A stretch of DNA of 64,000 bases from a virus: IMG/VR virus record IMGVR_UViG_2852885154_000004. One strand, written 5' to 3'. Of the stretch, positions 29,594 to 43,066 are shown piece by piece (the first letter of the stretch is position 1; the number at the start of each line of letters is the position of its first letter). Below the pieces are notes generated by a model that saw only the letters and a program-made list of their open reading frames with translations, ran no database searches and was not told the origin of the DNA. A program made the translations under genes and the position numbers.

Positions 29594-31030
29594 ATGCGAA
29601 TAGCGGCATATCTAAGAAAGTCAGTCAAAGGTGATGAGAATAGTATTTCTATAGATGCACAGCTTGAAATAATAAAGAATTACTTTAATAAAGAGAAATG
29701 TAAATATATAGTCTATACTGATGATGGTTTTAGTGGAGGCAGCACAAATAGACCTGCATTTCAAAAAATGATAGATGATGCTCATAATAATAAATTTGAT
29801 GCTGTTGCTTGTTATAAACTTGATAGAATGGCTAGAAACACTTTAGATTTTTTAAATACATTTGATGAATTACAAAAAATTGGAGTTGACCTTGTTTGTG
29901 TACAAGATAATTATGACCCAAGAACTCCGGCAGGAAAGATGATGATGACCTTGTTAGCTTCTTTAGCTGAAATGGAAAGAGAAAATATAAAAAGACGTGC
30001 TATTGATGGTATGTATAGTTTAGCTAAACAAGGTCGTTGGAGCGGAGGAACTCCGCCTTATGGTTGTGTTGCTTCTGAAGGAATTGGAGGTAAGTATTTG
30101 GAAATTGAGAAAAAAGAGGAAATTCTATATATTTTTAACCAATTTTCTATTGGTAACTCTATGTGGAAGATTTCTAAAGAAGTTGGAATAACACCTAGAA
30201 ATTTAGGAACTGTTTTGAGAAATCCTATTTATTTAATATCAGATGCAATTTCTAATAAATACTTGTCTACTATTGGATATAAAGTAATCGGAGAACCTAA
30301 TGGTAATGGCTATATGACTTATAAATACAACAAGTTTATAAAAGATAAAATGGTTAATTTGGCGGTGATAACACAAAATAAAGGAATAATCAACTCTACT
30401 CTTTGGATAAAGGTTAGAGAAAGGCTAAGGGCATTGGAACATGTACCGCCTAGAATATCTACTAAAAGTTGGCTAGCACATAAAATCATATGTAAACAAT
30501 GTAATAAAATAATGAGCATAAACTATGGAAGCATAAGAAAAGATGGAACTAGACCTATGTATTTTAGATGCAAGAAAAATTGTTTTTCAGGAATAAGAGT
30601 TGATGAAATAGAAGATAAAATTTTTTCTACTTTAAAAAACGGAAATCTTGAAAAGATACTAAATAAAAATGATGAAAATATTGAATTTAATATTGCTGAA
30701 AATATAGAAAAACAACTTAAGAAAAAGAAAAAGATGTATGATGGTTTTTTAGAAAAGTCTGCTCTTGCTTCAACTGCTGTTGCAAAATCTATGTTAGACA
30801 AAGCAGAACAACTCTCACTCGAAATTGAAGAACTAAATGTACAATACACTAAATATCAAATAGTTCTAAATAACAAAAGCAAAAAAAATGAAATGCTTAA
30901 AAACAAAGAACTGGCTAAAAATGAGTTTATAAAACATTTTAATAAAATAAACTTAGAGGATAAACAAAATTTGATAAATATAATTTTTGATAAATTAGTA
31001 TGGGATGGCGATAATCTCTTGATTTATTAG
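29594..31030 (+). CDS. Large serine recombinase (integrase)
   Basis: YLRKS, DDGFSG, YKLDRMAR, EMERENI, GGTPPYG, CxxC zinc ribbon. Confidence 0.95.
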   Translation: MRIAAYLRKSVKGDENSISIDAQLEIIKNYFNKEKCKYIVYTDDGFSGGSTNRPAFQKMIDDAHNNKFDAVACYKLDRMARNTLDFLNTFDELQKIGVDLVCVQDNYDPRTPAGKMMMTLLASLAEMERENIKRRAIDGMYSLAKQGRWSGGTPPYGCVASEGIGGKYLEIEKKEEILYIFNQFSIGNSMWKISKEVGITPRNLGTVLRNPIYLISDAISNKYLSTIGYKVIGEPNGNGYMTYKYNKFIKDKMVNLAVITQNKGIINSTLWIKVRERLRALEHVPPRISTKSWLAHKIICKQCNKIMSINYGSIRKDGTRPMYFRCKKNCFSGIRVDEIEDKIFSTLKNGNLEKILNKNDENIEFNIAENIEKQLKKKKKMYDGFLEKSALASTAVAKSMLDKAEQLSLEIEELNVQYTKYQIVLNNKSKKNEMLKNKELAKNEFIKHFNKINLEDKQNLINIIFDKLVWDGDNLLIY

Positions 31031-31053
31031 TTAGTGCAATTTAAAACTTTCTG
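31031..31053. other. att half-site (phage arm) of prophage A
   Basis: TGCAATTTAAAACTTTC-TG, inverted match to the right arm. Confidence 0.65.
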
Positions 31054-31138
31054 GATCTTCCAACGTCGTTATATTTAAAGCCTTGGAATCTATTTCTTTC
31101 AATATTGTGTAGATTGTAGTAGTTTTCCCAGAACCGGT
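31052..31138 (-). pseudogene. 87-bp internal fragment of a PilB/ComGA/GspE-type ATPase gene
   Basis: Translates to TGSGKTTTIYTILKEIDSKALNITTLEDP (Walker A to first Asp box). Confidence 0.85.
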
Positions 31139-31161
31139 TGCAACCTGTATAAAAGTGCAAC
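31139..31161. other. att half-site (phage arm) of element B
   Basis: TG-CAACCTGTATAAAAGTGCAAC; reverse complement contains TGCACTTTTATAC. Confidence 0.65.
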
Positions 31162-31426
31162 ATTTAAAAGTGTATTCGAGCTATTTACTGTTAATTATAG
31201 GGAATTTTTAGCTAATGCTATTTTTAATGACCTTGAAGATAATATAACAAACAGAATTCGTAAGCTTAGATATCTTAGCGGACTTTCCCAGATTGAATTC
31301 GGTAAAAAGATCAATAGAAAAGTAACCACTATTGGTCAATGGGAAAGAGGAATTTTTAATCCAAGTTTGCCATCAAAGAAGAAAATAATTAAAGCATTCA
31401 ATCTTCCTAAAAATTATCTTGATTAA
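31141..31426 (+). CDS. XRE-family HTH ORF lacking a canonical start codon
   Basis: ITNRIRKLRYLSGLSQIEFGKKINRKVTTIGQWERG; no ATG/GTG/TTG between in-frame TAA 31076 and the HTH. Confidence 0.7.
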
Positions 31427-32334: not shown

Positions 32335-33012
32335 TTAAAATTCTAAAGACTTTACAAAATCTTTACTTTGCAATATATTCAAGAATTTAATTATATTAAA
32401 TGATTCATATATTCTTATCACTATTTTCAAATCAATTAATAAGGATTTTTCATCTCTTTTGCTCTTTAAATTAATTATAGTTATCTCATTATCTTCAAAT
32501 ATTTCTTGAAGAAATTTAATAGCATCTGGCTCATCCACAATCTGCAACGCTAATGACTCTGTCCTTGGAGATGATAAAAATTTAATTTTACCATGCAAAA
32601 GTATTTGTCCCAATATAGTAATAGCAGTAGCTGCTATCCCAACAAAATAAAGTCCAGAACCTATAGCTAAACCTATAGCAGCTGTAGCCCAAACTCCTGC
32701 TGCCGTTGTTAATCCTACTATTGTTTGTTTTTGCATAAAAATTATCCCTGCACCAAGGAATCCAACTCCTGTGACAACCTGAGCTGCTATACGTGATGGA
32801 TCAAGAGACATATTGAGCCATCCTATCTGATCTTGAAATCCATATTTCGATATAATCATTATAAGTGCTGCCCCTATAGCTACAATAAAATGTGTTCTAA
32901 TTCCAGCCTCTTTCATTCGATTCTTTCTTTCATATCCAATAGCCATCCCACATATTGCAGCAATAAAGAGCCTTAATAAATAATCTAATTGCATTAAATA
33001 TAGTTCATTCAT
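32335..33012 (-). CDS. MgtC/SapB-family membrane protein
   Basis: IGYER, AGIRTH, DPSRIAAQVVTGVGFLGAG, GLTTAA. Confidence 0.92.
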   Translation of the reverse strand: MNELYLMQLDYLLRLFIAAICGMAIGYERKNRMKEAGIRTHFIVAIGAALIMIISKYGFQDQIGWLNMSLDPSRIAAQVVTGVGFLGAGIIFMQKQTIVGLTTAAGVWATAAIGLAIGSGLYFVGIAATAITILGQILLHGKIKFLSSPRTESLALQIVDEPDAIKFLQEIFEDNEITIINLKSKRDEKSLLIDLKIVIRIYESFNIIKFLNILQSKDFVKSLEF

Positions 33013-38628: not shown

Positions 38629-40088
38629 TAATCTGATACCTATGTCAAGGACAATATAAAAAAGAGTGTTAAGCGCATAAAAGATGGTTTCTGTATTGAA
38701 CAGGAGTCATCTTTTTCAAATCCCATTTATACCTATAATTGTTATAATATATTATATACTTGTCTATTTTCCTTTTAAGCTCCTCAAAAGTTTTGCATAT
38801 TTTTGTTTTAACAGAATCTTTTAAGTGTCCGAAAAAAGATTCTTGAGGTGCATTGTCCCAACAGTTTCCACGTCGTGACATTGACTGTCCTAAGCGTCTT
38901 TTCTTTAATAAATCTTGAAAAATAGGACTTGTATAATGGCATCCCTGATCGGAATGGACGAAGGCATTTTCATGCAACTTGACTCTTCACTGCTTCATTA
39001 GTTTACCAATTGTTTCAGTTGCTATATCAATTGTAATTCTTTTAGATATGTGATGAGCTAATACCTCACCAGTTGATGCGTCCAGAATGGTCGATAAATA
39101 GGCCATATTGTTTCCGTTGTATGGCAAGTATGTAATGTCAGTTAGTAATACTTTTCCAGGTATCTCTTGTTTGAAGTTTCTTTCTAAAATATTAGGGAAT
39201 GTTCTATGCTCTTTAGTAGCTTTGGCCATCTGCTTATATGGGTTTGCTTTTCTATGGGGACATATAATATTATACTTCTTCATTATTCTTTGTATTTTCT
39301 TAAGACTATAAACTGTATTAAATTCATTCTCTAAAATCATTTTTATAGAGCGAGAACCTTTCTTATATCCACGGCGATTAAATGCTTTTAGGATAATATT
39401 CTTGGCTTTTAAATCATTCTTTTCACGAGCTATTCTATTTTCTTTTGAATTAATATAATTGTAAAATCCCGATCGTGAAACAGCTAACAGCTCACAGAAA
39501 TATCCTGTTAAGTTTTTAAATTTGTTTTCTTTTATTGTAATATGTATTAATTTAAATATATCAGAAGTTTTTAGATTCTTACTTTTGTTTATCAACAACC
39601 TTTCTGTCACGTCTAATTTTTTTAGCAGTTCTACCTGCGATTCAAGCAACTTTATTTTTGCTTCTTGTCTTTCGATTATTTCTTCTTTACTCAATTCTCT
39701 TGAACGAGGACGCCCGCTAGTGCGCTTTCGGCTATCATCTAATCCTAAAATTCCATCTTTGTCATATAAAGTCTTCCATCTAGCAGCTGATTGTTCAATT
39801 CTTTTCAACCCTATTATATTAATATCAAATCCATTTTCAGCAAATATTTCTCTAGGCAGTTTGCCAGATGTGTATTCTTCAATAAAGAGTCTTTTGAATT
39901 CATCTGTATATGTTATTGAGCGTTCACTAACTCTAAGAATATTAACATTTTTCTTTAAGTTTATAATGTCCTCTTTAGTAAATAAAATCTTACTCATGTT
40001 CATCCTCCGTTGTTATTTCTATTATATAAAAAAACACCTACAGACTAAACACTTTTTTTCATGTGTCCAGTCTATAGGTATCATTTTA
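38629..40088 (-). mobile_element. IS3-family insertion sequence with 3-bp target duplication (TAT)
   Basis: Imperfect terminal IRs TAATCTGATACCTATGTCAAGGACA / TAAAATGATACCTATAGACTGGACA; TAT at 38626-38628 and 40089-40091. Confidence 0.85.
38669..40003 (-). pseudogene. IS3 transposase with in-frame nonsense codon
   Basis: TDITY / HSDQG / DNAPQESFF DDE motifs lie in one frame broken by TGA at 38987-38989. Confidence 0.85.
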
Positions 40089-40562
40089 TATGTACGGTCC
40101 CTTTCTTTATTAAAAATTATAGTAATCTATAACACTATGTAATTATTTTTTTTACTTTTGGGTTTTAATAAAAAAGCAGCAGTTAAAGCTCTCCTAACTA
40201 CTGCTATTAATACAGTAATGAATAAAGGGAATAAAGATTTCTCCCTACTCCCTTTATTTCGAAATGCTTAAATGAGCACCCAACATATTCTCTTAACTCT
40301 CTCAATTACATCATAACATATTTTAACAAAAGTCAAACTACTTTCTATTTAATTTACACACTTTCCTTTATTTGTAATATATTAGTTATATAATAGTATT
40401 TCCTAAAAAACTAGTAGTCTCAACAGTACTGGCATAATATTAATTCACAAAAAGCGGTAATTAGATTCCTTCTAGTTGCTGCTTTTACTTTTTTCATACA
40501 ATGATATTTAAGGAATGTTATTTAAATTTGATGCCATACTAAGTATGAAAGGTGGCTTTGAA

Positions 40563-40883
40563 ATGAAAAAAATTATAGCTGTATTATTAATTTTATTATG
40601 TGTTTTTCCTGCTCTAGCTTTAGCTGATCCTACTCCAAGCAATATATACAAGCAAGGCGTATATACCCCAGACGATTTAAAAAACTTCGCTATAAACACT
40701 AATACATATAATGTTCAAAATGTTTCAACTGATAAAAATGCTTATATAGTTATATTCGATAAAAATTTTCTTGCGGTTCAAGCTTTATATTTATCTCCTA
40801 ACTCACAAAAATATAATTTAATTCCATTTAAAGCTGATTACAGAATTGTAATCGTTGGTGATGGTGATGTATACATTTCATAA
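40563..40883 (+). CDS. Secreted hypothetical protein
   Basis: Signal peptide ending ALA; YKQGVY motif. Confidence 0.65.
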   Translation: MKKIIAVLLILLCVFPALALADPTPSNIYKQGVYTPDDLKNFAINTNTYNVQNVSTDKNAYIVIFDKNFLAVQALYLSPNSQKYNLIPFKADYRIVIVGDGDVYIS

Positions 40884-40935
40884 AAATAGAAGAAAATCAT
40901 ATCATTAAATCTAATACCCTAAATGGAGGATTATA

Positions 40936-41979
40936 ATGTGGATATTAAAAAAAGTATTAGTTATAGTACTATTAATGAATATTACAGTAAAATTTATTAA
41001 AATTAGTACATTTTACGACCTAAATTTAAACAATAAAAATATAACAAATGTTGCCGTATTACTATATACATTCGATCCATTTATGTCATCACTTAAACAA
41101 AGTTTAGAAAATATCCAAAAGGATAATTCTGATAAAATCAAATTTACTTTTTTTGATGGAAAAAACAATATAGCGCTACAAAATGAAACAATAGATTACG
41201 TTTCTCAAAATGATTTCGATTTAATTTTGGCAAACCTAGCTGATACAAGTGAAAACTTTGTTGAAGATATTATTTTTAAAGTTAAATCAAAAAATCTTCC
41301 AATAGTTTTTTTAGATGTAGATCCGGAAGTAGTGTCTAAAGTTTCTAAATATTATGATAAAGCTGCTTTTATACTGGCAAATTCTGATTTAGCTGGCACT
41401 GTTCAAGGTAATATTCTAGTTAATCTATGGAATGCTGATAAGAGTGCACTAGATAAAAATAATGATAACATTCTACAATATGTTCTATTACATGGTCAAG
41501 CTAAAGATCCAGTCACAATCGACAGAACAAAATATGCTATTTCAACAATTAGTAATTCAGGGATAAATATAGAACAATTAGCATTAGTAAATGCTAATTG
41601 GCTTAAGACCTTATCTAAAGATTCTATTGAATCCTTATTTCTTAGATATGATGGTAAAATTGAGGCAATAATTTCAAATAATGATGATATGGCAATAGGG
41701 GCAGTTGAGGCACTTCAAAAATACGGCTATAATAAGGGTGAAAAATCAAAAAATATAGCTGTTGTTGGAATTGATGGAATTCCTGAAGCAAAATCTCTAA
41801 TTGATAAAGGATTTATGACTGGTACTGTTATTCAAGACCCTAAAGTTTTAGCAGAAGTATTCTATAATGTTGGAATGAATTTAGTTAACAATTTAAGTCC
41901 TACTGAAAATACAAACTATAATGTTGTTGATGGAGAAATTATAGTTCCGTTCCCTTACGAGGAATATATAAAAAAATGA
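40936..41979 (+). CDS. Galactose/glucose-type ABC solute-binding protein (MglB-like)
   Basis: SNNDDMAIGAVEAL, VVGIDG, MTGTVIQD. Confidence 0.82.
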   Translation: MWILKKVLVIVLLMNITVKFIKISTFYDLNLNNKNITNVAVLLYTFDPFMSSLKQSLENIQKDNSDKIKFTFFDGKNNIALQNETIDYVSQNDFDLILANLADTSENFVEDIIFKVKSKNLPIVFLDVDPEVVSKVSKYYDKAAFILANSDLAGTVQGNILVNLWNADKSALDKNNDNILQYVLLHGQAKDPVTIDRTKYAISTISNSGINIEQLALVNANWLKTLSKDSIESLFLRYDGKIEAIISNNDDMAIGAVEALQKYGYNKGEKSKNIAVVGIDGIPEAKSLIDKGFMTGTVIQDPKVLAEVFYNVGMNLVNNLSPTENTNYNVVDGEIIVPFPYEEYIKK

Positions 41980-42226
41980 ATCGTTTTAATACAATTGTGA
42001 TGAATTTCTTTGCTAATTTAAAAAGTGCCTTTACGTAATAAGTTAATCGGAATATTTCAGTAACATTTTCCAAATACTATAATATATTAAAGTGATATGA
42101 GCAATTATATTGTTGTATATTTCTCCATGCCTCAAAAAGATTTCATTATCTACCCTCATTAAATATTCTAAAAAAGCAGTAGTTGGATTACTCCTATCTA
42201 CTGCTAACATATATCAGTTCTTTAAT

Positions 42227-43066
42227 TTACACAATATTATTCTTATCTAATCCATTTTCTTTAAGAATTGCGTACATCGTTCCATCTGCTTTCATCTCAT
42301 CAATCTTTTCATTTAGTACGTTTAGTAGAGTATTATCATTTTTTCTAACAGCTATTCCTACATTCCCTATTAGTTCCGGGCTATAATCATCTAGCGTCTT
42401 TAAAAAAAGATTCGTATTATCTTTTAAATCTTTGTTTACAACAAGTGAATCTGCTATACCAGCATCTATTTTCCCATTGTTTATTGAATCTAGCAATTCA
42501 GATATGCTTTGAAAAATTTCTATGTCTTTTATTAAGCCAGCAGTCTTCCATTTTTGAGCTAATTCTAAGTATATAGTTCCTTTTTCTACTCCAACTACTG
42601 CATTTTTCAAATCTTCTTTGAAATTAATTTTTGATGCCTTTGGAACTATAACTGCCTCTGTTTCCGCATATAATGGATGAGTAAAGGATGCTTCTTTCTC
42701 TCTCTCTGGAATTATATACATTCCACCAGATGCTATATCTATATTTTCGTCAGTTTTTAATCTTTGTAATAATTCTGAAAACACTGTGCTTTTAAAATCA
42801 ACTTTATTAATTTTAAGCCTATTTGAAATTTCATTTATTATATCTGCGTCAATGCCTCTTACCTTTTGAGTGTTAATATCTAAAAAATAGAACGGTGGAT
42901 CACTTGAGGCAGCTGCAACAGTAAGATTTCCTTTTTCTTTTATAGTTTGCAATCTATCTTTTTCAATTAAATTATCAACTCTGACAACTTCATTAATGTT
43001 TACAGTAAACCCAATTATCCTGCAAATGAAATTTACAATAACAATTAAAGCAACTATTTTCTTCAT
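42227..43066 (-). CDS. Amino-acid ABC solute-binding protein
   Basis: PPF..GIDADI, VGVEKGT, IAVRK, EMKADGT. Confidence 0.85.
   Translation of the reverse strand: MKKIVALIVIVNFICRIIGFTVNINEVVRVDNLIEKDRLQTIKEKGNLTVAAASSDPPFYFLDINTQKVRGIDADIINEISNRLKINKVDFKSTVFSELLQRLKTDENIDIASGGMYIIPEREKEASFTHPLYAETEAVIVPKASKINFKEDLKNAVVGVEKGTIYLELAQKWKTAGLIKDIEIFQSISELLDSINNGKIDAGIADSLVVNKDLKDNTNLFLKTLDDYSPELIGNVGIAVRKNDNTLLNVLNEKIDEMKADGTMYAILKENGLDKNNIV

Follow-up and report, generated by a model that had tools for sequence, protein, structure and literature searches.

An orphan XRE-type frame at a clostridial prophage junction is very probably the detached end of a serine integrase gene split by attP

INTRODUCTION

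A serine integrase is generally taken to be one unchanged protein whether its phage is free or integrated, with the direction of recombination set by a separate directionality factor (RDF). In the Myxococcus phage Mx8 (IntP/IntR), which has a tyrosine integrase, attP lies within int and integration swaps the C-terminus of the protein; to our knowledge, neither an XRE tail nor a frameshift is part of that system.

Other genes divided by an attachment site have been described. In mycobacteriophage BPs and its relatives, the phages with integration-dependent immunity, attP lies inside the repressor gene (PMC3694055). The archaeal "suicidal" tyrosine integrases of SSV1, pTN3, and pT26-2 carry attP in the integrase gene, which is partitioned on integration, and self-disrupting recombinases have been called exclusively archaeal (PMC8371274). 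For serine integrases, putative RDFs have been found in about 60% of the cases (PMC12286644), and engineered integrase-RDF fusions act by intra-subunit contact (PMC5737554).

The locus described here resembles the attP-in-gene switch of BPs and the split archaeal integrases and differs from both, being a variant in which a serine integrase would lose an XRE tail. As in BPs, attP falls inside a phage gene and the free and integrated states have different C-termini (two protein forms); however, in BPs the gene is that of the repressor, from which integration removes a degradation tag, whereas here a serine integrase would lose a folded XRE domain, and many members of the group add a slippery site. 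The SSV1-type elements share with ours the position of attP inside the integrase gene, but theirs is a tyrosine enzyme whose catalytic part is cut off, whereas here only the accessory HTH of a serine enzyme is lost, and the prophage form keeps its resolvase, recombinase, zinc-ribbon, and coiled-coil parts. The integrase lacks a defining feature of each of these types. Engineered integrase-RDF fusions likewise carry a small C-terminal domain on a flexible linker (PMC5737554, PMC12286644), but they are artificial and excision-biased, whereas the fusion considered here is natural and state-dependent, and its long form would have to integrate in some lineages. In skin and SPbeta, as here, a host gene is interrupted by an element with a serine integrase and regains its frame when the element excises, but the RDF is a separate gene and the accessible accounts do not mention a split integrase-HTH.

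A search of mainly open-access literature, main texts only, retrieved no paper on a serine integrase to which an XRE domain is added across attP, whether or not a frameshift is involved. The accessible texts of PMC12286644, PMC11795197, and PMC10083194 do not mention HTH, helix-turn-helix, or frameshift, and those of PMC5027557 and PMC3442830 hold nothing on a split integrase-HTH layout.

RESULTS AND DISCUSSION

Two prophages in one host ATPase gene

The window analyzed is a stretch of 64,000 nucleotides of viral DNA (IMG/VR record IMGVR_UViG_2852885154_000004). Protein records give Clostridium beijerinckii as the host. In the window, two different serine-integrase prophages occupy one host ATPase gene, with their att centres 81 bp apart. 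The features of the junction are the following.

29594..31030, + strand: large serine integrase of the left prophage, 478 aa; its stop precedes its own att site, and it is not the partner of the HTH frame
31031..31060, no strand: left prophage, att junction on the integrase side; arm motif 31033-41 (contains a GTG), symmetry centre 31056-57, shared core to 31060
31052..31138, - strand: piece of the host PilB/T2SSE-type ATPase gene, 29 codons (87 nt), from Walker A to EDP
31137..31162, no strand: right prophage, att junction at the far end; symmetry centre 31137-38, phage-arm 14 bp at 31149-62
31139..31426, + strand: very probably the 3' part of the right integrase gene, 95 codons; att-encoded linker and XRE/Cro-C1 HTH (about 31256-31420)
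31145..31147, + strand: CTG, the sole start-like codon near the right att site; no Shine-Dalgarno sequence by eye

Both ends of the right element are present in a provirus record (G001) of 84,869 bp, whose identity to the window is mostly 95-99%. At the far end of this record lies the N-terminal half of the ATPase, which matches PF00437, and the host frame is open again after in-silico excision of the right element. Run X1, which is possibly the source of the window, differs from G001 in the host-frame codons of the N-terminal half (L024, 1-690) by synonymous changes only (11 of 11 differences), which suggests either that the gene is kept restorable or that the insertions are recent. Rightward of the HTH frame come the cargo, lysis, and tail genes of the second prophage. 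The cargo at this end (32335-33012 and 40515-43066) includes an MgtC-family gene and, by inspection, solute-binding-like proteins. A transposase, which we take to be IS3-like, occupies two frames in the window (38669-40003) and a single 444-aa frame in G001.

Similar arrangements were seen elsewhere. At L034 (4606-4720), an integrase of 43% identity likewise has its insertion site in a similar ATPase gene, at the GPT Walker A codons. Protein record P0006 has the same HTH tail behind other upstream sequence, perhaps because of secondary insertion into a different gene with a Walker A motif. At L067, L087, L090, L091, L093, L096, and L119, a short stretch of non-phage DNA separates an integrase from an orphan HTH tail. 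The recurrence of this last layout suggests that tandem elements at one host locus are common in this integrase family.

The start-less HTH frame and the right integrase

The first-pass annotation of the window, made from the sequence alone, had described an HTH/XRE frame without a canonical start at an att site. Both points were borne out: no ORF of at least 50 aa starting with ATG, GTG, or TTG is listed for 31139-31426, and the interval contains an HTH_3 domain (E 2e-8), the tail scoring 34.4 bits against a curated cut-off of 23.

The partner of this frame is found at the other end of the element. In G001, the right integrase has 576 aa, carries Resolvase, Recombinase, and zinc-ribbon domains, and lies about 73 kb from the HTH frame; its frame continues across attR and ends 5 codons inside the host gene, in the part for the N-terminal half of the ATPase. 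Together with its coiled coil, these domains make up the set of a large serine recombinase. A perfect 14-bp inverted repeat pairs window positions 31149-62 with an arm inside the distal integrase gene, and the position of these arms places the right crossover at 31137-38, in an att site that has the form of an attP of ~50 bp with inverted arms around a central dinucleotide. When the right element of G001 was excised in silico, a 667-aa open frame ending in the HTH appeared at all eight crossover points tested in the shared core (8/8). The distal end of the right element is inferred from G001 and run X1 rather than read in the window; run X1 spans the distal attR with 36 substitutions, no gaps, and no integrase stops, so the strain of the window very probably has the same frame.

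From this anatomy, there seems little doubt that the start-less HTH frame is the 3' end of the serine integrase gene of the right prophage, split by attP in such a way that free phage DNA would encode a long form and the prophage a short one. What the first-pass annotation had said of an HTH frame cut at att and complete only on excised or free phage DNA stands, and an intact ORF, from the integrase to the HTH, is indeed obtained on the reconstructed right attP. Its six-codon GTG leader does not, the missing N-terminus being the 570-residue right integrase. The attP would therefore lie not inside the gene of a free 101-aa regulator or directionality factor but inside an integrase gene whose product is an integrase-XRE fusion, and the proposed coupling of the HTH to the neighbouring integrase falls as well: its integrase lies off-window and is the right prophage's own. 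Used alone as a query, the HTH retrieved no viral locus and no longer protein; the integrase-HTH fusion is present in the protein cluster table.

Upstream of the right integrase (L024, about 2400-2480; see also L033 and L127), an extended -10-like element has a copy of a 12-13-nt word on either side. The word is one mismatch away from the Gram-positive SOS box, and the exact box occurs in the closest relative. An SOS-box-like motif before the integrase is not family-wide, since exact matches were found in 1 of 92 clusters versus 6 of 410 control windows, and matches with at most one mismatch in 17 of 92 versus 48 of 410 (p 0.09).

The left prophage junction

The GTG leader came from a model in which the two arms of the window join at TG and a 101-aa regulator is read from GTG-31034. 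Much of its description is accurate: the GTG (31034-36) lies 3 nt past the stop of the left integrase (31030), in the frame of the HTH, and meets a TAA at 31076-78; the length given for the chimera is arithmetically correct (6 + 95 codons), and the chimera is open on paper. The arms, however, come from two elements that differ in integrase and in attB, so that the chimera is not a natural product, and arm symmetry places the crossovers at 31056-57 (left) and 31137-38 (right) instead of at the two TG dinucleotides. The GTG is itself part of the left att arm motif, and on the probable natural left junction the GTG frame is not intact but closes after 16 codons (hand translation). We reject this model for natural junctions, where it is hardly credible; only aberrant cross-element recombination could make such a protein.

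In 3 of 4 runs of one sample (possibly the source of the window), contigs leave the window at 31060, and the sequence beyond this point carries the inverted partner of the arm motif 31033-41. We read this contig junction as the attP of the left phage, the product of its excision; the left phage seems to excise in culture, the putative attP junction coexisting with the integrated form in 3 runs. A 20-letter motif of its presumed distal arm had no match in viral contigs. In a genome search, the left integrase matched 85 of 385 genomes, from which no loci were obtained. Its relatives L002-L008 have no A-run at the integrase stop.

Long and short integrases on record

Both forms occur among protein records. 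One cluster at 90% identity (40 members) brings together, among the 15 members listed, integrases of 573 aa, orphan HTHs (93-112 aa), and a fusion of 664 aa. The natural 664-aa protein WP_173717617.1, with three integrase domains and HTH_3, is found on 5 contigs, and the prophage form of 573-576 aa retains the three Pfam domains of the integrase without loss. In phage CP51 (KC237729), the integrase encoded by the genome has 655 aa, with HTH_3 at the C-terminus; its counterparts from prophages in the same cluster have 569 aa and diverge from the long form at the att centre. Three further clusters contain long/short pairs of 658/578, 656/565, and 681/550 aa. A 547-aa form is also found among DNA-derived records. 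The tail of the virion TPELB_ph1 gave no Pfam match and a weak match to the tail profile built in this analysis.

Annotators start proteins of 93, 72, or 56 aa inside the HTH frame, and most inspected tails have an NTG codon 2-3 codons past the att centre, often ATG, GTG, or TTG in the relatives. The HTH might then be a separate small protein made in both states from its own start (CTG-31145 in the window), perhaps an RDF or a repressor, with the fusion as a side effect. We consider this improbable. By eye, no Shine-Dalgarno sequence precedes the start codon, whose TG is also dictated by the arm symmetry, and no promoter-like match lies between att and the tail; the promoter scan gave 4 sites versus 5.8 expected. 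A separate protein would also leave unexplained why the linker length is kept modulo 3 and why A-run and in-frame states, both described below, interconvert.

Tail and register among relatives

Our survey comprised 176 loci, 155 of which have a complete integrase; at 85% identity, these fall into 94 clusters. For 110 loci (67 clusters), a long form or DNA downstream of the integrase was available. In 12 of these 67 clusters the tail is continuous with the integrase, in frame in five, in the -1 frame behind an A-heptamer in five, and in the +1 frame in two distant ones. Six further clusters have an orphan tail behind other DNA, as in the window, and most other loci are prophage junctions, at which an adjacent tail would not be expected. 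Several tails are twin HTHs. The attP state was called at an arm symmetry of at least 14/18, a value reached by none of 465 control windows; the tail is present in 7 of the 10 clusters in this state and absent from 3, so the integrase family works without it too. An eleventh candidate, cluster 61, was rejected, having a hairpin around the A-run.

Provirus records give a second view of the register. On the integrase strand, towards the opposite end of the record, a full-length stop-free tail is present in 13 of 27. In-silico excision of 15 provirus records yielded four confident att pairs, and all four are in register: in two of them the integrase and tail share one frame, of 654 and 656 aa, and in the other two the tail follows the heptamer in the -1 frame, with 114 and 169 open codons. 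The remaining 11 of the 15 were not callable. Six low-score att pairs (11-12 of 18; frames 0, 0, +1, +1, +1, and -1) were discarded, five of the six records ending at the integrase stop.

A slippery site at the integrase stop

In 37 of 94 clusters, a run of six A in the phase of a -1 heptamer (X_XXY_YYZ) falls within the last 12 codons of the integrase, versus 160 of 3572 control windows (4.5%). Runs of A9 fit all three phases, and phase information comes only from the six clusters with just 6-7 A near the stop, all of which are in phase (6/6). The -1 frame stays open for at least 20 codons in 19 of 25 heptamer clusters (the +1 frame in 6 of 25), compared with 14 of 41 clusters without a heptamer (Fisher p 0.002, in clusters that are related and not independent, which inflates the p-values). 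The att arm motif is in the phase of the -1 frame in 16 of 21 clusters, at distances of 20, 29, 32, 41, 47, and 56 nt, all equal modulo 3, with 10 of these 16 sharing one arm distance. There are exceptions: 6 of the 25 heptamer clusters have no open -1 frame of 20 codons, and the phase is broken in 5 of the 21. The others have the sequence pattern of a programmed -1 frameshift or transcriptional slippage site, in which the heptamer (or an A9 run) goes with an open -1 frame that is conserved. Strong hairpins (< -13 kcal/mol), as candidate 3' stimulators, were found in 5 of 25 clusters only. At L148, L125, and L010 (phage HM T type), the A9 run is followed by a strong hairpin and the +1 frame, not the -1 frame, is open.

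In the lineage of the window, the A9 run is kept in frame, so a slip there would yield the short form. At positions 751-759 of L024, a contig of RNA run X7 reads A10 and DNA run X5, from another study, reads A9, the contig being otherwise identical to G001 over 1201 nt. As a trace of slippage this is only a hint, because the run length varies among DNA-derived records too. Judging from the conserved register, a frameshift or slippage on the A-run is probably used in vivo.

In a FastTree tree of 85 integrases (midpoint root; those below 38% identity mostly left out), the A-run lineages are interspersed with in-frame long forms in four separate places. One of these, the C. beijerinckii lineage of the window, is nested among relatives of 551-552 aa.

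Structure and possible role of the tail

The AlphaFold2 model of the natural 664-aa protein has a confident integrase core and a separate HTH at residues 600-664 (pLDDT 82-95), connected by a tether of low confidence (543-596), to which the residues encoded by att belong. The best PDB matches of the tail are XRE repressors and controller proteins, and both its HTH_3 score above the cut-off and its helical HTH fold are those of the XRE/Cro-C1 type.

We propose that free phage DNA encodes an integrase-XRE fusion and that integration cuts the gene, leaving a short integrase. Many relatives would reach the tail by a -1 slip on the A-run just before the integrase stop, whereas in at least four lineages, including that of the window, it would be read in frame without a slip. 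Three in-frame lineages with a clear attP have no A-run longer than 6 in the linker and are also found as prophages, so their long form would have to integrate. In such lineages, barring helpers or proteolysis, the long form would integrate at infection and the short form would excise at induction.

As to function, we tentatively favour, at slightly less than an even chance, a role of the tail as a DNA-binding regulator that exists only in the attP/free state. Bound to DNA through the integrase dimer, it would damp transcription of the integrase or of the lysogeny module on the circle; damped transcription would limit re-integration, and integration would remove the tail. We rank the regulator first because the minority product of a slip would suit a low-copy regulator better than a per-subunit cofactor. 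The operator search, carried out in nine tail-bearing loci and in G001, found the words shared by the integrase upstream region and the att flanks to be at chance in all of them (9/9 and G001). In G001 the tail-bearing integrase gene stands alone; in CP51 two genes precede it, one of them encoding a repressor-like HTH protein. With transcription contexts that differ in this way, a single autorepression target fits poorly.

The tail could instead act on recombination itself, by binding DNA beside attP or contacting the synapse, and so favour attP x attB or block attL x attR. Its loss on integration would then leave a short integrase able to excise, so that the gene itself would contain a direction switch, perhaps in place of an RDF. 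The lineages without an A-run, which encode only the long form at infection and only the short one at induction, would agree with this, as would the origin of in-frame forms at four separate places of the tree and a modelled tether of ~55 residues that could reach flanking DNA; that putative RDFs are known for only about 60% of integrases (PMC12286644) points the same way. Yet no extra arm-like repeat was found around attP, left-right words being at or near chance in nine tail-bearing loci (the best was reached by 1 of 30 shuffles), in slip lineages the tail would sit on only part of the subunits, and a pro-integration form on the circle after induction would oppose the lytic cycle. An action on recombination seems somewhat unlikely to us, and we regard as unlikely its fuller version, in which a widespread class of clostridial serine integrases would have an in-gene direction switch, the long form integrating, the short form excising, and the A-run tuning the amount of the long form, without any RDF.

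That the tail is a natural fused RDF appears improbable; in this case the long form would, once excision has taken place, stimulate attL x attR and prevent re-integration in the manner of the engineered fusions. Its geometry, C-terminal on a flexible linker, is theirs (PMC5737554, PMC12286644), and the fusion would be encoded right after excision; slip lineages would still make a short integrase for integration, and in the strain of the window, which keeps A9, a slip would also give the short form. Against it, free DNA of the CP51 type encodes only the long form and yet prophages occur, and an RDF is needed before excision, when the fusion cannot be made.

Implications

The layout recurs in many clostridial phages and is likely to let the phage sense its integration state. 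Annotation pipelines miss the split gene because 35-70 kb separate its two parts. Members of this family taken from prophage sequence for genome engineering would be the short forms, and the attP-state forms may behave differently. Where direction has been assigned to a separate factor acting on an unchanged enzyme, here recombination would rewrite the integrase itself, with a second recoding layer, the A-run, conserved alongside. This makes the control of direction and of prophage stability directly testable.
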